Origin: an uncultured Candidatus Saccharibacteria bacterium
Lineage (GTDB): Bacteria > Patescibacteriota > Saccharimonadia > Saccharimonadales > CAIOMD01
Reading direction: 5' to 3'
NCBI GenBank assembly: GCA_903859365.1
Contig: CAIOMD010000013.1
Coordinates: 1,081 to 65,080, forward strand
DNA: 64,000 bases
Below the pieces are notes generated by a model. It saw only the letters and a list, made by a program, of their open reading frames with translations, did not search any database and was not told where the DNA came from. Shown here piece after piece: positions 2,393-62,267 of the stretch (its first letter is position 1; every line of letters begins with the position of its first letter). Both the position numbers and the translations under genes were made by a program.

Positions 2393-3052
2393 ATGCGAAT
2401 CAATAAATTAATTGCCGGAAGACTTGGTATTTCTCGAAGAAAAGCCGATGAATTTATTGAAAAAGACCGTGTCCTCGTTAATGGCATACTCCCATCCCCA
2501 GGAATGGATATAACTGATCCATCGACTGTTTTAGTAGATAAAAAACCGCTGCCAGAGGAGAAGAAAACGATTACTATACTTCTCAATAAACCAGAAGGTT
2601 ACGTCTGTAGCCGTGATGGCCAGGGAAGCCACACGGTCTATGAGCTACTTCCATCCGAGCTTCGATTCACTAATATCGTAGGTAGGCTAGACAAAGACAG
2701 CAGCGGACTACTTCTTTTTACTAATGATGGAGAACTGCATAACGACCTGACGCATCCTTCAAAAGATAAAGAAAAAACATACCATGTAACGTTAAATAAG
2801 AAGATTTCCGAAAATGATCTCGAGATACTGTCTAAAAAAGGAGTGCCCCTGAGAGATGGTATTTCTCGATTTATTATTCTAAATCTAGACACAGATTCCT
2901 TCCTGTACGAGGTAACATTAAGAGAGGGTCGCAATAGGCAGATCCGCCGAACTTTCAATGCAATGGGGTATAAAATAACCGCCCTTCAGAGAACGGCAGT
3001 CGGAGCTTTTTCTTTAAGCGAACTTAAGCCAGGTGAATATAAAATAGTTTGA
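2393..3052 (+). CDS. Pseudouridine synthase, RsuA/RluB family (S4 domain plus catalytic domain)
   Basis: S4-like N-terminus MRINKLIAGRLGISRRKADEFI, catalytic GRLDKDSSGLLLFTNDG, REGRNRQIRR. Ends at a TGA stop at the expected length. Confidence 0.85.
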   Translation: MRINKLIAGRLGISRRKADEFIEKDRVLVNGILPSPGMDITDPSTVLVDKKPLPEEKKTITILLNKPEGYVCSRDGQGSHTVYELLPSELRFTNIVGRLDKDSSGLLLFTNDGELHNDLTHPSKDKEKTYHVTLNKKISENDLEILSKKGVPLRDGISRFIILNLDTDSFLYEVTLREGRNRQIRRTFNAMGYKITALQRTAVGAFSLSELKPGEYKIV

Positions 3053-3123
3053 AAACATAAAATATAATTTGTCAATTTTTCACTAGCTTTTTACCTCTGT
3101 TATTGCTATAGTAAATAGAACTT

Positions 3124-4473
3124 ATGAGTAAAAAAGTCCCTATCGTTGCAATTGTTGGAAGAGCCAATGTCGGAAAGAGTAGTCTTTTCAATACAATAAT
3201 TGGTCATCGCGAAGCAATTGTAGCCAATGAACCCGGTACAACTCGAGATAGTATTATGTCGAAGGCTACTTTTAGTGGCCAAGATTTTTGGCTCATTGAC
3301 ACAGCCGGAATGAAAGACGCTGAAGATGATTTTGAATTCACCATTCAAGAGCAGATAATCCAAGCGGCAGATAGCGCTGACATCATTATGGTGATGGTAG
3401 AAGCGGATATCATGATTACTGAAGAAGATAGACGAGTTGCTAAGCTTGCCCTTAAGAGTAAAAAAACCGTAATTCTAATTGTTAATAAAATTGACAAGAA
3501 CGTACACGTCGACCTTGATGACTATAGAAAATTAGGAATTAAAGAAATTTTTGGAACCAGTACAACGCAGCGATCTGGCGTCGAAGAACTTCTTGAAGAT
3601 CTAACCAAAAAACTTCCAAAAGCAAGTATCAAAGTTGAAGACGATCGACTGAGGATTGCAATCTTAGGCCGCCCTAATGTCGGTAAGAGCCAGCTCTTCA
3701 ATACCCTAGCCAAAAAACAGCAGGCAATTGTCGCGGACAAAGCGGGTACGACCCGAGATGTAAACCGAACTATCATCAAATATGCTGGTAGGGAGATTGA
3801 ACTGCTCGATACTGCAGGTATTAGAAAAAATGGAAAAATAGAAGTTGGTGTCGAGAAATTTAGTGTTATTCGAAGTCTTGCTGCTATCGAACAAGCTGAT
3901 GTTTGTTTTCTTTTGATCGACGTTAATGATCTAACCGTTCAGCTTGATCAAAAAATTGGTGGAATCATTAAAGATGCAGGCAAGGGCATGGCGCTGGTTG
4001 TTAGCAAGTGGGATTCAGTAATCGAAAAAGATGCATTCACTAGGGACGACCTTGCCCCAAAAGTTAAATACCAGTTTGAATTTGCACCTTGGGCGCCTCT
4101 CATCTTTACGAGTAGCGTGACAGGACAGAATGTCTCAAAGCTTTTTGAACTCGCATTAGAGATTGATACCAATCGACACAAGAAAGTTACCACTGGTGAG
4201 TTAAATCGTTGGCTTAGAGCTTGTGTTGACGCGCACCCTCCTGCAGGACTTAAGAATAGCTATCCTCGATTAAATTACATTACTCAGACTGATGATGATA
4301 CTCCGACCTTTAAAGTCTTCGGTAGCCATACTAAATTGCTCCATTGGAGCTACAAAAGATATCTCGAAAGACAACTGAGAGAAAAATATGGGTTTGAAGG
4401 TACTGCCGTTAAATTTTACTTCAGCGAAAAACACGAGCATCAGCCAAATGCTCCAAAACCTAGAGGCCGTTAA
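3124..4473 (+). CDS. der: Ribosome-associated GTPase Der/EngA
   Basis: Two tandem G domains (GRANVGKSS..DTAG..NKID and GRPNVGKSQ..DTAG..SKWD) plus a KH-like C-terminus. Confidence 0.95.
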   Translation: MSKKVPIVAIVGRANVGKSSLFNTIIGHREAIVANEPGTTRDSIMSKATFSGQDFWLIDTAGMKDAEDDFEFTIQEQIIQAADSADIIMVMVEADIMITEEDRRVAKLALKSKKTVILIVNKIDKNVHVDLDDYRKLGIKEIFGTSTTQRSGVEELLEDLTKKLPKASIKVEDDRLRIAILGRPNVGKSQLFNTLAKKQQAIVADKAGTTRDVNRTIIKYAGREIELLDTAGIRKNGKIEVGVEKFSVIRSLAAIEQADVCFLLIDVNDLTVQLDQKIGGIIKDAGKGMALVVSKWDSVIEKDAFTRDDLAPKVKYQFEFAPWAPLIFTSSVTGQNVSKLFELALEIDTNRHKKVTTGELNRWLRACVDAHPPAGLKNSYPRLNYITQTDDDTPTFKVFGSHTKLLHWSYKRYLERQLREKYGFEGTAVKFYFSEKHEHQPNAPKPRGR

Positions 4474-5140: not shown

Positions 5141-6793
5141 ATGCTCGTTTCTATTGATATAAGCGATAAACACTTCGGTGATAAGGTTTTGTACAAAAAT
5201 CTTCAATTTACTTTAGAAAAAAACGAAAAAGTAGGGGTTATAGGCCGAAATGGTGCAGGAAAAAGTACACTATTTGGCATGCTAGCGGGAACCGATACAG
5301 AGTTCGATGGAGAAATTAAAACTGCCAAAAATACCGTCGTAATAAGCACTCGACAAGAACATTCAGACATTGATGATCTTATGGTTATAGATTATATTCT
5401 CGATGAATTACCGCAGTACAAAAAACTAAAGAAAATTATTGATTCTTTCGGTAGTGATGGGAATACAAGTACCAATGCGATGAATCGATATAGCGATGCC
5501 CTAGAGCAATTCAGTAGCCTTGGTTATTACACAATTGAAGATACTGTTATCGAGAAATTAAAAACGTATCAAATAGACGAAGATAAGTCTCGCGGCCCAC
5601 TTGAAAACCTAAGTGGTGGCCAAAAAAGATTTGTTGAACTCGTAAAAATTGCTAATGCAAATGCAGACTTAGCACTAATCGACGAACCTACTAACCACAT
5701 GGACTACATCGCTAAAAATGAATTCATTGATTGGCTAGATAATGTCAGAAATCTTGCAGTACTTGTGATTACCCATGATCGTGATGTGCTTGAAAAAGTT
5801 GATCGAATCGTTGAGATCAAGGAGGGGAAAGCCCTGATTTTCAAGGGAAATTATGATTCATATCTACTTCAAAATAGTTCATCAACAGTAACCGCTATAA
5901 AGAATTTTGAGATCGATGAAGCCACTATAGTAAATCTAAAGAAGCAAATTGAATTTGCCCGCGCACGATCAGCCAAGGGTGGACCACGTTGGGTTACTCT
6001 AAGGGAGCGATACGAAAGAGAATTGAAAGAAATTCTTGATAATAGAAAGAAGCCGAGTTTTTGGATTGATAGAGAATCATTATCGAAACTACATCCAAAA
6101 GCTGCAGAAGGCTACGGAAAATATAAGGCAAAAAATATTCGGATTGCAACGCAAGCTGGAACTTCCGATAACAAGGGGTATCAGCCAATTATAGAAGTAG
6201 ATAATCTTTCCCTTGGATATAATGAGCCCCTATTTGAACATATATCATTTAAACTCCTTGAGGGCGATAAGCTGCGATTCCACGGAAGGAATGGTGCCGG
6301 CAAGACGACACTTATTAAAACTATCCTCGCAACTGCCAACGAGGAGAAAATCTCCGCTACTATTTATCAAGGAACTGTTGAAGTACGCCCTAAACTTGCA
6401 ATAGGCACCTATGAGCAAGAAATAGGCGATAAATACATGGATATGGACTTAGAAAAGGCCCTAGAGCAACTTTATTTAGATAAAGATATTCCTGTTAATG
6501 AACAAAAAGTACGCCAACTAATGAGCGATTATTTATTTAATCCTTTAACTGACGCAAAAATACCTATACGACTTCTGAGTGGAGGACAAAAAGCACGGTT
6601 CCAAATCATCTCAATGCTCGCTAACAATCCTCAATTACTTATTTTGGACGAACCAACGAATCACCTTGACCTTCCAAGTATCGAAGAACTCGAAAACGCA
6701 CTGCACCGATTCAAAGGCGCGATCATATTCGTAAGTCATGACGGATTCTTCGTTAAGGGCTTTGAGCACGAAACACTTCCTGTAGGAAAATAA
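5141..6793 (+). CDS. ABC-F family ATPase (two ABC cassettes, no membrane domain)
   Basis: Walker A GRNGAGKST and GRNGAGKTT, signatures LSGGQKRF and LSGGQKAR, Walker B LALIDEP and LLILDEP. Confidence 0.9.
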   Translation: MLVSIDISDKHFGDKVLYKNLQFTLEKNEKVGVIGRNGAGKSTLFGMLAGTDTEFDGEIKTAKNTVVISTRQEHSDIDDLMVIDYILDELPQYKKLKKIIDSFGSDGNTSTNAMNRYSDALEQFSSLGYYTIEDTVIEKLKTYQIDEDKSRGPLENLSGGQKRFVELVKIANANADLALIDEPTNHMDYIAKNEFIDWLDNVRNLAVLVITHDRDVLEKVDRIVEIKEGKALIFKGNYDSYLLQNSSSTVTAIKNFEIDEATIVNLKKQIEFARARSAKGGPRWVTLRERYERELKEILDNRKKPSFWIDRESLSKLHPKAAEGYGKYKAKNIRIATQAGTSDNKGYQPIIEVDNLSLGYNEPLFEHISFKLLEGDKLRFHGRNGAGKTTLIKTILATANEEKISATIYQGTVEVRPKLAIGTYEQEIGDKYMDMDLEKALEQLYLDKDIPVNEQKVRQLMSDYLFNPLTDAKIPIRLLSGGQKARFQIISMLANNPQLLILDEPTNHLDLPSIEELENALHRFKGAIIFVSHDGFFVKGFEHETLPVGK

Positions 6794-6801
6794 AAGGAAC
6801 T

Positions 6802-6841
6802 AAAAAGAGCCTATAGAGGGGGTGGGCACCACTATAGGCTC
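6802..6841 (-). terminator. Rho-independent terminator, minus-strand orientation only
   Basis: Perfect 10-bp stem (6807-6816 with 6832-6841) and a 15-nt loop. It is followed by TTTTT only when read on the minus strand; on the plus strand it is followed by CATATTA. Confidence 0.6.
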
Positions 6842-7108
6842 ATATTAGCCTTCAACCCCGTACGACGAGCGTACAACGCTTTTAAAGCCCACCTCAATAA
6901 AACGAGGGGTTAAAGCTTACGGTTAAAGGCGTTAGTATGTTTTAGAACGCTTGAATAGTAAACTATTACGCTAGCGTGGAGGGTAACAACGCATGACGCA
7001 CGCTCTAAAACAATCTAACAGCGTTGAGCAGTTTATAAATAAACTGAACAACAGCTAGAATTTTTTGGGGGTATAAGGTACGTAAAACGTAAGAATTTAA
7101 CGTTTACG
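6802..7108 (-). ncRNA. Candidate ~300-nt structured small RNA of unknown family
   Basis: Lies between a near-consensus minus-strand promoter and the minus-oriented terminator. Nested long-range complementarity and no ORF of 60 aa or more. Visibly more G+C-rich than nearby spacers. Confidence 0.4.
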
Positions 7109-7114
7109 AAGCAA

Positions 7115-7143
7115 ATAATAGCATTTCCTTTATTTTTTGTCAA
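7115..7143 (-). promoter_or_regulatory. Sigma-70-type promoter for the candidate sRNA
   Basis: On the minus strand: TTGACA (7143-7138), 17-nt spacer, TATTAT (7120-7115). Confidence 0.45.
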
Positions 7144-7251
7144 TAATATTTTACTAGATGTTTATGTTTATGCTTACATGGTATTTGCTTGCAATTTCAT
7201 TCAATAGCATATAGTCTAAGTCTCGTTACAAATTAAATTTGATGTATATAT

Positions 7252-9543
7252 ATGAATAAAAAGAACCTTGTTATCGTTGAGTCACCAGCAAAAGCTAAGA
7301 CAATTGAAAAATTTCTTGGCAAAGATTATGTAGTTCGAAGTAGCTTCGGGCACATTCGTGATCTTCCAAAAAAAGGAATAAGTATAGATATTGAGCACGA
7401 TTTTGCTCCTACTTATGAAATACCTAGTGATAAAACCAAGGTTGTAGGCGAATTAAAAAAAGAAGCTAAGGGTGCTGAAGTTTGGCTCGCAAGTGACGAA
7501 GACCGCGAAGGGGAAGCCATCGCTTGGCATCTGGCCGAAGCACTCGGGCTTGATACTAAAACTACTAAACGTATCGTCTTTCATGAAATAACAGAAACTG
7601 CAATCAAGAATGCCATTGCGCACCCAAGAACAATAGATATTAATCTTGTTGATGCCCAACAATCAAGGCGAATCCTTGATAGGATCGTTGGTTACGAATT
7701 ATCTCCAGTATTATGGAAAAAGGTACGGCCAGGCCTTAGCGCTGGACGAGTACAATCAGTTGCTGTTCGACTTATCGTTGAACGTGAGAGAGAAATCAAC
7801 GACTTCCAATTTGAATCAAGTTTTAGAGTTCAGGCCACCTTTACTAAAAATAAAGATGAGATTCCTGCAGAGTTAAATAAACGATTTTCATCTGAAGAAG
7901 AAGCTAATAAGTTTCTAGAGCTTGCAAAAACTGCTGAATTTAAAGTTAAGGATATTACCTTAAAACCCAGCTTAAGAAATCCGTCGGCGCCATTTACGAC
8001 TTCAACCCTGCAGCAAGAAGCAGCCCGCAAATTAGGATTTAGCGTAAAACAAACAATGACTTTAGCGCAAAGACTTTATGAAAATGGTCACATCACCTAT
8101 ATGCGAACAGATAGCACAAATCTGTCCGGTCTAGCCATCGCCTCTGCACAAAGTTATATCCTTGATAATTTTGGCAAGGAATACCATCAAGTTCGACAAT
8201 TCAAAACTAAGAATTCATCTGCCCAAGAAGCCCATGAAGCTATTCGTCCAACTCATTTCGATAAGACTGTTTCGGGTGAAGATGAAAGTCAGAAAAAATT
8301 ATATCAATTGATATGGAAGCGGACACTTGCGAGCCAAATGACTCCCGCCAAAACTGATAAAACTGAAATAGCTATAGGCATTTCAAACCACTCAACATTG
8401 TTTATATCTAAGGGAGAAATGTTGAAATTTGACGGTTTCCTCAAAGTTTACGGTGGTGGTAAAGAGGACTCTATTTTACCCGCTCTAAGCAAAGACGACA
8501 TTCTTGCTCGACAAACTATTAACGCCCACGAAAGTTTCTCAAGGCCACCCGCGAGATACTCCGAAGCGAGCCTAGTGAAGGCACTCGAAGAACTAGGTAT
8601 TGGACGCCCTAGCACATACGCTCCAACCATCAGCACGATCCAAACTCGCGGCTACGTTGAAAAAGCTGATCTAGAAGGCATTGAACGGCCTGCCGTCGAT
8701 CTAACGCTAGAAAAAGATACTATCAATCGATCTGTGATAGACGAAGTGTACGGAGCAGATAAGGGTAAGTTACTCCCAACACATGTTGCAAATGTAACGA
8801 CTGACTTTTTAGTTAAATATTTCGGGGATATCATTAACTCTGGTTTTACTGCTACGGTTGAAAAAGATCTAGACGAAGTAGCTGAAGGAACTGTTATATG
8901 GCAAAAATCACTTAAAGAATTCTATGAAAAATTTCATCCTTTAGTTGAAAAAGCTGGCGATGCCACTAGGCAAGAAACATCGCAAGCGAGACTTCTAGGA
9001 AACGACCCTAAATCAGGAATACCAATTTACGCTCGATTCGGACGATTTGGACCGATGCTTCAAAGAGGCGAAGTTGAAGATGAGAAAAAACCCGATTTTG
9101 CCCCAATGCCTGCTGGCATCAAACTCGAGAACGTTACACTTGAAGAAGCACTCACGATGTTTACCTTGCCAAGACTCGTCGGGAACACGAAAGAGGGTGA
9201 TGAGATCAGGGCAAATATTGGAAGATTTGGACCCTATATACAGATAGGCAAAATTTTTGTTTCCATAAAGCCCCTTGATCCCTTTACTATTACACTTGAG
9301 GAGGCACTAGAGCTCTACGCAAAAAAACAAGAAACAATAGCCAATCGAGAAATTAAAATATTTGAAAAAGAAGGAATAAGCATACTTAATGGGCAGTATG
9401 GACCCTTCATAACAGACGGTAAAAAGAATGCAAGAATTCCAAAAACGACAGAACCAAAAGACATAACCCTAGAACAAGCAAAAGAAATGCTCGCTAAAGC
9501 AAAACCAGCGCGTAAAAAAATCACTCGACGGCGTAGTAAATAG
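7252..9543 (+). CDS. topA: DNA topoisomerase I
   Basis: Toprim VIVESPAKAKTIEKFLG and DEDREGE, active-site tyrosine region ITYMRTDS. Cys-free C-terminal repeats (FGRFGPM, GRFGPYIQ, QYGPFITDG) and a basic tail. Confidence 0.95.
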   Translation: MNKKNLVIVESPAKAKTIEKFLGKDYVVRSSFGHIRDLPKKGISIDIEHDFAPTYEIPSDKTKVVGELKKEAKGAEVWLASDEDREGEAIAWHLAEALGLDTKTTKRIVFHEITETAIKNAIAHPRTIDINLVDAQQSRRILDRIVGYELSPVLWKKVRPGLSAGRVQSVAVRLIVEREREINDFQFESSFRVQATFTKNKDEIPAELNKRFSSEEEANKFLELAKTAEFKVKDITLKPSLRNPSAPFTTSTLQQEAARKLGFSVKQTMTLAQRLYENGHITYMRTDSTNLSGLAIASAQSYILDNFGKEYHQVRQFKTKNSSAQEAHEAIRPTHFDKTVSGEDESQKKLYQLIWKRTLASQMTPAKTDKTEIAIGISNHSTLFISKGEMLKFDGFLKVYGGGKEDSILPALSKDDILARQTINAHESFSRPPARYSEASLVKALEELGIGRPSTYAPTISTIQTRGYVEKADLEGIERPAVDLTLEKDTINRSVIDEVYGADKGKLLPTHVANVTTDFLVKYFGDIINSGFTATVEKDLDEVAEGTVIWQKSLKEFYEKFHPLVEKAGDATRQETSQARLLGNDPKSGIPIYARFGRFGPMLQRGEVEDEKKPDFAPMPAGIKLENVTLEEALTMFTLPRLVGNTKEGDEIRANIGRFGPYIQIGKIFVSIKPLDPFTITLEEALELYAKKQETIANREIKIFEKEGISILNGQYGPFITDGKKNARIPKTTEPKDITLEQAKEMLAKAKPARKKITRRRSK

Positions 9544-13395: not shown

Positions 13396-13414
13396 TCATA
13401 TCCACCAAAAAATA

Positions 13415-13432
13415 GAACATTTTACGAACATA
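13415..13432. repeat. Direct repeat copy 1 (GAACATTTTACGAACATA)
   Basis: 17/18 identical to 13929-13946. Lies 20 nt past the ATPase stop codon. Confidence 0.9.
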
Positions 13433-13779
13433 AAATAAATGATGATAACGGGACGACAAAGGTAATTAATAATTGATACGTTGGATGGTTAGTTTCTTTA
13501 GCAGAGGACTGAATAAGGGATCAGATAAAATTAGCTGAACAAGATATATTCATATGAGAGATGACCTATAGAAGGGCTTATTTGTCTGGTTCTACAATGT
13601 CGCACAATATATCTTTTACGACATTAATTATACAAATAACCACGTTTCGTAGTGCGTTGCTAGCAGGGTATGTTTTACAAATATTTATATATTAAAGGGG
13701 CTACCGGTAGAAATTGATTATCACTTCTATACCGCTAAGATCAGCTCAGCTTTTCTTTTTAACAAAAGTGCTATATATA

Positions 13780-13790
13780 GTTATCCACAG
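13780..13790 (+). promoter_or_regulatory. Perfect DnaA-box-like motif GTTATCCACAG
   Basis: Exact match to the canonical TTATCCACA 9-mer, in an ORF-free spacer. Confidence 0.3.
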
Positions 13791-13928
13791 CTATATTTGC
13801 AATTTTGGTTCTTTTGTTGCTTTATTCACTTTTCCCCACCTCTTCCCCTTTTTTTTAAAATATTTGCTTTTTTAAGATATTGTTGGTGTTATATGGAAAG
13901 ATTAGCTAAACCTACGCAAATCTAATAC

Positions 13929-13946
13929 GAACAATTTACGAACATA
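13929..13946. repeat. Direct repeat copy 2 (GAACAATTTACGAACATA)
   Basis: 17/18 identical to 13415-13432. Lies 14 nt past the ftsQ stop codon. Confidence 0.9.
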
Positions 13947-13959
13947 GTGTAGTGGGGGG

Positions 13960-33892: not shown

Positions 33893-33893
33893 A

Positions 33894-34166
33894 ATGTCAC
33901 ACGTTAAAGCAGGTGGAACCAGTAAAAATAACCATGATAGCCCCGGTCAAAGACTTGGTGTTAAGAGATTTGGTGGCCAAAAAGTTAGAACTGGTGAAGT
34001 AATCATCCGTCAAGTTGGTCAAACAAAGTTAGCAGGTGACGGCACCTTCATGAGCAGAAACTTTACCATACACGCCGCAAAAGACGGTATCGTCTCTTTC
34101 AAGCAAAGAGCATCTCGTAAATTTACAGGTAAGACAGTTCGAAGAACTGAAGTAGTTGTAGAATAA
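33894..34166 (+). CDS. rpmA: 50S ribosomal protein L27
   Basis: MSHVKAGGTSKNNHDSPGQRLGVKRFGGQ. Confidence 0.95.
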   Translation: MSHVKAGGTSKNNHDSPGQRLGVKRFGGQKVRTGEVIIRQVGQTKLAGDGTFMSRNFTIHAAKDGIVSFKQRASRKFTGKTVRRTEVVVE

Positions 34167-34187
34167 GTAACTAGATATAAACTGATT

Positions 34188-34216
34188 AGTCTCCTTTTAC
34201 TAGGAGACTTTTTTTA
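34188..34216 (+). terminator. Rho-independent terminator after rpmA
   Basis: AGTCTCC-TTTTACTA-GGAGACT followed by TTTTTTT. Confidence 0.75.
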
Positions 34217-61812: not shown

Positions 61813-62056
61813 ATACCCTGTTCCTGCAATATTTATTCCCTCTAATTTTACCATTTTACGATTTATTATTCATAACATAATGTTCTACGAATTAAGCGTA
61901 TGCTTTTTATACTTTAACTGTTGTAAAAAGTATATTTAACAGATGAAAGAAAATATAAGTTTTATATTAATTTTTTTAAAAAACGTTGTATTTTTTAAAA
62001 ATAAACTATCTCTTATCGACTTCAAATTTTATCTAGCTTAGAAATATGTTTTTAAA

Positions 62057-62090
62057 GTAATAATCGCTTCTTTTACGAAGCGATTATTAC
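62057..62090. terminator. 14-bp perfect hairpin (GTAATAATCGCTTC-TTTTAC-GAAGCGATTATTAC)
   Basis: Lies in the 413-bp spacer between the surface-protein stop and parA. T-runs on both sides are weak or offset, so its direction is unclear. Confidence 0.45.
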
Positions 62091-62256
62091 TGCTATTTAC
62101 TACTTTTTTAACAACAAGCCTGCGAGGTACTTACTGTTTATGTGTAGCCCGCCTTTTGTGGCAGTAGCTTTCTCAACACTTATGTTTATTTTTGTAATTT
62201 AAGTATGCCAAAATAATATATTTAATGCAAGCACATAAGAACAAATAATGTGCTCA

Positions 62257-62265
62257 TTATCCACA
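62257..62265 (+). promoter_or_regulatory. Perfect DnaA-box-like 9-mer TTATCCACA
   Basis: Exact match 2 nt outside the surface-protein stop codon. It is followed by G, as in three other copies. Confidence 0.3.
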
Positions 62266-62267
62266 GG

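Follow-up and report, generated by a model that had tools for sequence, protein, structure and literature searches.

A probably undescribed family of large structured RNAs in Saccharimonadales, and the recurrence of its terminator loop on phage hairpins

In a stretch of 64,000 nucleotides from an uncultured Candidatus Saccharibacteria bacterium (contig CAIOMD010000013.1, positions 1,081 to 65,080; hereafter the window), the 458-bp spacer at 6794-7251 lies between the gene of a 550-aa ABC-F protein (5141-6793, plus strand) and topA (7252-9543, plus strand), and on its minus strand there is almost certainly a real RNA gene, that is, an independent gene with its own promoter for a structured non-coding RNA. 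The gene is conserved at one locus throughout the sampled relatives, its helices covary, its product matches no known RNA family, and I consider it very probable that the family has not been described before. On balance I favour the view, drawn from sequence comparison, that the members of this undescribed family are stable RNAs that probably bind protein. An earlier sequence-only reading of this DNA had proposed a stand-alone minus-strand unit for a structured RNA of about 300 nt, either a very divergent known RNA or an undescribed one, and the present analysis supports that proposal. Its description of the unit as antisense to both flanking genes was loosely worded: the unit is on the opposite strand, but it overlaps neither gene, being convergent with the ABC-F gene (9 nt apart) and divergent from topA.

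The unit begins with a sigma-70-type promoter (7115-7143, minus strand), in which the -35 hexamer TTGACA (7143-7138) and the -10 hexamer TATTAT (7120-7115) are separated by a 17-nt spacer. It matches the consensus at 11 of 12 positions, has in addition an extended -10 TG at 7123-7122 (the spacer ends in TG-C), and is the top promoter-like site of a 2-kb scan. At the other end lies the terminator hairpin (6807-6841, minus strand), a perfect 10-bp stem (6807-6816/6832-6841) with a 15-nt loop, UGGUGCCCACCCCCU, at 6831-6817; read along the minus strand from 6841 to 6802, it consists of GAGCCUAUAG, the loop, CUAUAGGCUC and UUUUU. As the sequence-only reading had noticed, the TTTTT at 6806-6802 flanks this hairpin in the minus orientation only. 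A T-run follows the hairpin in all homologues, and I place the 3' end of the transcript in this U-run (6802-6806, minus strand). The terminator scan used here allowed loops of at most 8 nt, so that the window hairpin, with its loop of 15 nt, was passed over by it. With transcription starting at about 7108, 7 nt past the -10 hexamer, the transcript would extend from about 7108 to about 6802 on the minus strand and would measure about 307 nt.

The longest open reading frame (ORF) within the spacer has 36 aa, in agreement with the earlier remark that it lacks a long one, and in the homologues the longest ORF, with a median of 48 aa, keeps no consistent strand or position. The spacer had also been called richer in G+C than other spacers. 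This holds for the RNA body, whose G+C of 0.417 exceeds that of coding sequence (0.384) and of most true spacers (0.26-0.34), but the spacer as a whole reaches only 0.36 because its promoter side has 0.24. The region 6797-7108 folds far better than its shuffles on either strand (minus, -101 kcal/mol, z = -7.0; plus, -99.6 kcal/mol, z = -6.35), so that the structure is real, and the nearly equal energies leave the strand to be decided by other evidence.

In a TopA-based scan of reference genomes, the source metagenome-assembled genome (MAG; L001) appears at 99% identity, with relatives at 78%, 75% and 64%, of which L010 and L002 are labelled Candidatus Saccharibacteria and L003 is an unclassified MAG. 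Bacteroidota TopA has only about 54% identity to the window TopA, and the protein homologues carry the name Candidatus Saccharimonadales; the source organism is a bacterium of the Saccharimonadales, in the candidate phyla radiation (CPR). The element was found in L010, in L003 and in four syntenic loci fetched via TopA homologues (L014-L017), and it is present in every related genome with enough upstream flank (7/7). Alignments of eight sequences reveal blocks without any variation, and promoter and terminator stay on one strand throughout. A metagenome scan by a pattern made from two invariant blocks then gave at least 120 loci (L160-L279), in about 108 of which nhmmer detected the element at full length. 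In L160-L279 the search pattern itself dictates the invariance of blocks B (UUUUAGA.CG) and C (GUUGUUACCCUCCAC). It placed no constraint on blocks X, D, D2 and E or on the terminator loop, all of which are nearly invariant nonetheless, and block C is also invariant in eight sequences that were found independently of it. The sequence-only reading had made its case depend on conservation in relatives, and the element is indeed conserved at the same locus in relatives and on more than 100 metagenome contigs, together with its promoter and terminator.

The full promoter motif, TTGACA with a spacer of 16-17 nt, TG and TAnnAT, is present in 98 of the 108 full-length copies, with 17 nt between the hexamers in 94 of them and 16 nt in four; the commonest -10 hexamers are TAAAAT (49), TAGAAT (29) and TATTAT (12), and eight of the remaining ten copies differ from the motif by one base. 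The same hairpin with its T-run closes all 108 copies. L173 and one of the L252 copies have the promoter and a variant of the terminator loop instead of the exact one. From inferred start to terminator the RNAs of the family are about 280-510 nt long, with a median near 390, the copy in the window, with its 307 nt or so, being a reduced member. On the promoter side a divergent gene, dprA in 63 cases and topA in 14, is found in 77 of 78 loci, and on the terminator side a convergent pth in 49 of 55 loci and ABC-F in three. Given this stable synteny, the RNA is a single-copy core gene of Saccharimonadales, vertically inherited at a fixed locus, and not a mobile element.

Several observations touch on this sample. 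The window lineage has lost the dprA that separates the RNA from topA in most relatives, and ATGTTTATGTTTATGCTTACATGG (around 7160-7185) looks like the remnant of a dprA start (compare ATGCTTATGCTTCAT in L010); gene content beside the 3' end of the RNA differs between lineages. One 4.3-kb contig, L252, has two inverted copies of the RNA gene (981-1425, minus; 2860-3306, plus) that are 97% identical, which is probably an assembly artefact and not a real duplication. Two MAGs titled Bordetella parapertussis (L004) and Asaia bogorensis (L013) have Bacteroidota-like TopA scores (54% and 42% identity to the query), and these bins are probably mislabelled or contaminated. The best 120 hits in the lists of DprA and TopA homologues all have at least 59% identity, a range that does not reach the cultured oral Saccharibacteria of the TM7x type.

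Covariation was examined in an alignment (A4) of 84 distinct homologues, made with MAFFT, for which RNAalifold gave three helices, and base pairs were counted on 37 pairs. Standard pairs fill 99.6% of cells, against 90.2% after shuffling, with none of 500 shuffles reaching the observed value, and the covariation score is 0.284 against 0.102 shuffled. When the partner columns are slid by 1-3 positions, 31-55% of cells are paired and the covariation score does not rise above 0.068. The test for covariation that the sequence-only reading had put forward is therefore clearly positive.

The first of the helices, P3, pairs 7019-7001 with 6949-6931, a complementarity that had been noticed beforehand and is real as an inverted repeat. 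Its 5' strand (7001-7019, minus strand) reads GUUAGAUUGUUUUAGAGCG and its 3' strand (6931-6949, minus strand) reads CGUUCUAAAACAUACUAAC; over 17 pairs, 99.9% of cells in the 84 homologues are paired (1 of 1,428 cells is not). One of its pairs is GC in 49, AU in 18 and GU in 17 sequences, and A-to-G changes opposite U, giving U-G in 15, 3 and 3 sequences, would be tolerated only on the minus strand. In P4, block D2 (6921-6930, minus strand; GCCUUUAACC) pairs with block E (6848-6857, minus strand; GGUUGAAGGC) in the register 6930-6921/6857-6848, with 98.9% of cells paired. Compensatory pairs are CG 72/GC 12 and CG 77/GC 7, UUUAAG covaries with CUUAAA in seven sequences, and the flanking position pairs as G-C in the window group and as C-G elsewhere. 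Another pair of P4 is UG in 75, UA in 7 and CG in 2 of the 84 sequences, CCUUCAAC converting the U-G pair to C-G. The terminator stem covaries too: eight of its ten pairs change on both sides (for example CG 35/GC 25/AU 12/UA 12). Its loop hardly varies; the first base is U or C, and the other 14 nt, GGUGCCCACCCCCU, are invariant in 84/84. The apical part is predicted to form a G-C-rich extension with a bulged U and a CCCACC hexaloop. Read on the plus strand, the many G-U pairs would become A-C mismatches; they and the orientation of promoter and terminator assign the RNA to the minus strand, as had been argued earlier from a single such pair.

One element of the earlier fold has to be modified. 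The sequence-only reading had drawn an outer helix between 7067-7078 and 6849-6859, and this complementarity exists; the arm at 6849-6859, however, overlaps block E, for which covariation supports D2 as the partner. The C-run of X and the G-run before E, moreover, co-occur only weakly (71 sequences with both, 5 with the G-run only, 4 with the C-run only and 4 with neither). As a consensus helix the outer pairing is rejected in favour of P4, and it is kept as an energetically possible alternative conformer. In folds constrained to one or the other pairing, X-E and D2-E are nearly isoenergetic (median difference 0.2 kcal/mol over 80 family members), with D2-E favoured in 41 members, X-E in 34, and an exact tie in the window copy. 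Both partners of block E are conserved, and CUAAC, CCCC and CCUU(U)A are motifs found in X as well as at the D/D2 junction. Covariation does not settle the choice between the two folds, as the bases concerned do not vary, and the competition for block E may reflect an alternative conformer, a conformational switch or a pseudoknot.

The remaining parts of the RNA (all on the minus strand) surround these helices. At the 5' end, hairpin P1 (7081-7108) has at least 5 bp in 82 of 83 homologues and a mean z of -3.3 over 78 distinct sequences, in which it is kept with changed sequence. It is followed by block X, a conserved C-rich segment (7055-7079; ACCUUAUACCCCC..UUCUAG; family consensus ACCUUAUAUCCCCCAUUCUAAC) that is predicted to be either single-stranded or, in the alternative fold, paired with 6849-6859. 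The P2 region (7015-7058) has UCUAG/CUGUUAG around a variable inserted hairpin at 7029-7046; such an insert is present in 41 homologues (mean z = -4.4) and absent elsewhere, leaving UCUAAC-loop-GUUAGA. Block C (6976-6990) lies in the internal loop or junction that P3 closes, and the same domain holds a small hairpin (6954-6968) at a position of variable hairpins; the segment from C to D folds with a mean z of -2.5 in 84 homologues. P4 encloses domain 4 (6860-6909), here with two hairpins at 6888-6909 and 6860-6874; its length in the family is 61-155 nt, larger members having more hairpins. An optional hairpin before the terminator has z = -5.0. All three local hairpins of the sequence-only reading (7081-7108, 7029-7046 and 6860-6874) are present, the latter two at sites where homologues have hairpins of variable size. 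The variable hairpins were tested sequence by sequence because MAFFT misaligns them, and they fold far better than shuffles. The variation in length is modular and confined to fixed insertion points.

No known RNA family is matched by this element. With cmscan, all 4227 families of Rfam 15, lax filters and E <= 10, the best match at the locus has E = 2.6, and nine larger homologues gave only chance-level matches to miRNA and leader models at E <= 5. At Rfam gathering thresholds the whole 64 kb contains one tRNA only (ARAGORN agrees, tRNA-Glu), and 14 viral loci gave no relevant match. The sequence-only reading had seen no hallmark of tmRNA, RNase P RNA or SRP RNA, and the same is true, on both strands, of 93 members searched for the corresponding strings. 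RNase P RNA, of which CR-I and CR-V form helix P4, has no Rfam model match (window copy at E <= 10, nine homologues at E <= 5), and the strings CR-I (GGAAAGUCC), CR-IV (ACAGAA) and CR-V (GGCUUA) are found in 1-11 of the 93 members, with antisense counts so similar that they amount to chance. There is no match for tmRNA by Rfam or ARAGORN; its T-loop strings occur in 7/93, an ACCA end in 0/93 and a tag-like end in 1/93. SRP RNA gave no Rfam match, and its domain IV GGAA-type loop motif occurs in 0/93 members. Neither the window copy nor the nine homologues match the Rfam 6S models, and no covariance model match was obtained for OLE, ROOL, GOLLD, raiA or HEARO. In the literature on the loop, on CPR non-coding RNA and on RNase P, I found no published description of the RNA or its loop. 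As a family the RNA appears to be new, in the sense that it has no defining feature of any known family tested.

The terminator loop leads outside the bacterial genomes. Its 15-mer occurs once in the 64-kb window, and in 0.89 Mb of Saccharibacteria loci essentially only in the RNA gene, a rarity that excludes a generic terminator motif of the host. In IMG/VR it occurs 87 times, in 86 stretches (L018-L103). In at least 50 of the 87 occurrences the loop, (C/U)GGUGCCCACCCCCU, tops a hairpin, the stems being unrelated in sequence and complementary over 6-17 bp, where I estimate about five such hairpins by chance. All 33 viral contexts that were inspected have the hairpin sense to the adjacent phage genes. 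These 33 hairpins stand between cistrons or at operon ends, in structural and lysis modules, and no integrase-sized gene stands beside any of them, as judged by size and context only, domains not having been checked. A U-run comes after some of the viral hairpins; after others come a small second hairpin (CCAGC-UUU-GCUGG) and the ribosome-binding site of the next gene. Judged by these features, the viral hairpin looks like a portable RNA module with a putative reader.

A 38-kb IMG/VR contig, L090, holds a complete RNA gene with promoter (7925-8372, plus strand) at the contig end, with genes for RecT, an FtsK/PD-(D/E)XK protein and Dam and C5 methyltransferases in the usual place of dprA. This copy is either phage cargo or belongs to a prophage beside the host gene. 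The same contig has a lone hairpin at 6863-6877 (minus strand). RNA-binding KH proteins of the KhpA type, about 81 aa long (PF13083, E = 1e-15 and 3e-14), are encoded in two contigs that bear the hairpin, L090 (2839-3084, minus) and in L098 (6577-6822, plus), and such genes occur in 0 of 56 control viral loci. A KhpA-type KH protein as the reader of the C-rich loop is a lead suggested by this co-occurrence, which is statistically weak.

Partial direct repeats of the loop (GTGCCCACCCCCT) were seen directly after the RNA terminator in L169 and 185 nt downstream of it in L197 (5184-5196); they are reminiscent of the hot spots where elements integrate at tRNA 3' ends, but no integrase was seen. 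The idea that the phage hairpin serves as attP and the 3' end of the RNA as attB is weak, with no integrase-sized neighbour in the 33 inspected contexts, hairpins in sense orientation within operons and only two degenerate repeats. Searches of phage and plasmid databases gave no match. On one hairpin-bearing viral contig, L025 (9128-12020), there are also an array of 16 tRNA genes and a 75-nt match to the tmRNA model (53 bits), about 450 nt downstream of the hairpin.

Within the window, Shine-Dalgarno sequences are rare (GGAGG upstream of 2 of 54 long ORFs), and at many ORF starts TAnAAT stands 6-10 nt before the ATG, which suggests that leaderless mRNAs are widespread. Further long gaps, counted between ORFs of 100 aa or more, are found at 13396-13959 (564 nt, G+C 0.33), 33893-34213 (321 nt, 0.40) and 61855-62267 (413 nt, 0.26); the Rfam scan at gathering thresholds gave no match within them.

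I propose that the RNA, built of the 5' hairpin P1, the C-rich segment X and two domains closed by P3 and P4, with variable hairpins at fixed insertion points and completed by a terminator hairpin with an invariant apical loop, would be abundant and protected from nucleases by the hairpins at both ends. It would work by binding protein, as a scaffold or a sponge, and the scaffold would display its invariant C-rich elements (X, block C and the terminator loop) as a recognition surface. Phages would copy the apical loop onto hairpins of their own operons, where a cellular factor would recognise it. Three observations point this way. Segments of 15-22 nt (X, block C and the terminator loop), probably single-stranded, are invariant across lineages whose TopA proteins are 64-78% identical and whose DprA proteins have about 44-55% identity to the L010 DprA query, which suggests a surface for recognition rather than a seed for base pairing. 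Length varies only in hairpins at set positions, a pattern also known from RNase P RNA, tmRNA and SRP RNA, which suggests an RNA read by protein, and the copying of the apical loop module alone by phages suggests that a host factor reads the loop. Expression level, protein binding, the identity of the partner and the cellular role I infer from these patterns, and binding of protein as the mechanism is offered tentatively, at somewhat less than even likelihood. A still bolder version, in which a housekeeping-grade large structured RNA (a ribonucleoprotein (RNP) or a ribozyme), universal in Saccharimonadales, has its loop read by a cellular factor, perhaps of the KhpA type, and its signal copied by CPR phages, is possible and rather doubtful.

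A number of points weigh against this proposal. The 5' and 3' ends of the transcript are deduced from consensus sequences. The sampled family is biased towards conservation, blocks B and C being set by the search pattern; the MAFFT alignment takes no account of structure, and phylogeny does not enter the shuffle control. The loop-bearing viral contigs carry no host assignment, and the link to KhpA-type proteins consists of two viral contigs against none of 56 controls, so that the protein partner of the RNA is a prediction only. The near tie in energy between the two pairings of block E across the family would suit a conformational switch, or regulation by base pairing, equally well. Lastly, the RNA may do the work of a known housekeeping RNA such as 6S or Ms1, an equivalence that sequence models alone may miss.

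This last alternative, the Saccharimonadales counterpart of a known global housekeeping RNA, most plausibly a 6S- or Ms1-like binder of RNA polymerase, would account for a strongly promoted, terminated, single-copy and highly conserved RNA, and the P3 domain, with its long closing stem, large asymmetric internal loop containing block C and terminal hairpin, might be likened to it. Across phyla, 6S RNAs are difficult to recognise, and none is known to have been reported from CPR bacteria. I nevertheless hold it unlikely, as no Rfam 6S model matches even at E <= 10 with lax filters, the RNA is branched into two domains over 280-510 nt instead of forming a rod of about 180 nt, and the two sides of its internal loop differ greatly in length (about 35 nt against 3-6 nt). 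I would also bet against a trans-acting regulator in which X and the C-rich loops pair with G-rich targets while the X-E/D2-E switch gates X. C-rich loops do serve regulators such as RNAIII, RsaE and RoxS, and the two conserved, mutually exclusive partners of E, their nearly isoenergetic folds and the motifs shared by X and the D/D2 junction are all compatible with it; but invariance over 15-22 nt through such deep divergence is unusual for base-pairing small RNAs, and elsewhere in the 64-kb window there is no site complementary to X, C, F or D2. The narrower idea of an anti-Shine-Dalgarno sponge was rejected because Shine-Dalgarno sequences are rare, leaderless starts are common and complementary targets are lacking within the window. 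Among bacterial RNAs, those of such size and conservation often turn out to be catalytic or to form RNPs. The size, the multi-domain architecture and the invariant nucleotides of junctions and loops would suit a large ribozyme of a new kind or a structural assembly of RNA only, of the sort proposed or demonstrated for certain large orphan RNAs of bacteria, as would candidate tertiary contacts predicted between a UGGAG loop and CUCCA in block C and between GUGGGC and GCCCAC in the terminator loop. No catalytic signature or substrate is evident, however, and reduced forms of 266-310 nt lack much of domain 4, and this possibility appears quite improbable.

More improbable yet is that the gene derives from a phage or is mobile, or that it is an integration (att) site conserved by recombination. 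The full copy on the viral contig L090, the loop shared with phage hairpins, the partial loop repeats in L169 and L197 and the varying gene content on the 3' side would all agree with such an origin. Against this, the gene is single-copy and its synteny is stable, in 77 of 78 loci towards the promoter and in 52 of 55 towards the terminator, the 33 inspected hairpins are in sense orientation in structural and lysis modules with no neighbour the size of an integrase, and phage and plasmid databases contain no match; moreover, an att site explains neither covariation through 300-500 nt nor a promoter. A cis-regulatory leader of dprA or topA on the plus strand, a gene for a small protein and chance structure are hardly credible and effectively refuted. 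The plus strand does fold well (z = -6.35), and in every relative the element precedes topA or dprA, but promoter and hairpin with U-run are conserved in the minus orientation only, many of the minus-strand G-U pairs would be A-C on the plus strand (U-G in 75 of 84 sequences for the P4 pair named above), there is no conserved ORF, and conservation in more than 100 loci rules chance out.

The genomes of Saccharibacteria and other CPR bacteria measure about 1 Mb, and according to a 2022 transcriptome preprint on strain TM7x these bacteria have no validated small RNAs. An RNA of 300-500 nt that is strongly promoted, kept at one locus over an order-level clade and conserved in segments about as well as rRNA is likely to have a central role. 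It would join the short list of large bacterial RNAs with open function, among them OLE, ROOL, GOLLD and raiA. The loop shared with intercistronic hairpins of phages provides an experimental handle, since one can ask what binds it, and it may also mark phages of these uncultivated bacteria. Being easily recognised by its unchanging blocks and stable synteny, the family can be annotated right away in thousands of MAGs. An axis of RNA recognition between host and phage would, if true, be new to a phylum with almost no characterised RNA biology. New families of non-coding RNA appear regularly, and this combination of size, conservation and a hairpin mimicked by phages is uncommon and directly testable.

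Among known systems, the closest functional analogues would be 6S/Ms1 and the orphan large RNAs OLE, ROOL, GOLLD and raiA. Like 6S RNA (SsrS) and Ms1, the RNA is stand-alone, strongly promoted, ended by a terminator, highly conserved and predicted to be stable, and it probably acts via a protein machine and not by coding or cis-regulation; in contrast to 6S, a rod of about 180 nt with a balanced central bubble, it has 280-510 nt in two closed domains with variable hairpins. With OLE, ROOL, GOLLD, raiA and HEARO it has in common that it is large, intricately structured, restricted to one lineage, open as to function and linked to phages (GOLLD and ROOL occur in phages), but it differs from them in its CPR host, its fixed chromosomal locus, its own consensus promoter and its lack of Rfam similarity. 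RNase P RNA and tmRNA fall in the same size range and likewise combine a conserved core with hairpins whose length varies at set positions, and they too are single-copy and conserved at a housekeeping grade; unlike RNase P RNA it has neither the CR-I, CR-IV and CR-V strings nor helix P4 of that RNA, and unlike tmRNA it has no tRNA-like domain, ACCA end or tag ORF.

Other likenesses concern parts of the molecule. The duplex P3 (GUUUUAGAGC/GUUCUAAAAC) resembles, by eye, the repeat:anti-repeat duplex of CRISPR in tracrRNA or single-guide-like RNAs, whereas its 5' region is conserved, a variable guide segment is lacking and its neighbours are ABC-F and TopA. A tracrRNA or guide RNA was rejected, as no adjacent cas, iscB or tnpB gene is present (dprA or topA is the neighbour in 77 of 78 loci; distant partners were not searched), and the window contains no ORF of Cas9 size, the largest having 860 aa. 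RNAIII of S. aureus and RsaE/RoxS similarly expose several C-rich motifs on a multi-hairpin RNA, but the present RNA has far higher sequence conservation, a host that rarely uses Shine-Dalgarno sequences and no targets within the window. Finally, the operators of phage coat proteins and lambda boxB resemble the terminator hairpin in having a variable lower stem and an invariant apical part and in recurring in phage transcripts; their sequence is unrelated, and in Saccharimonadales the hairpin doubles as an intrinsic terminator and its reader protein is putative.

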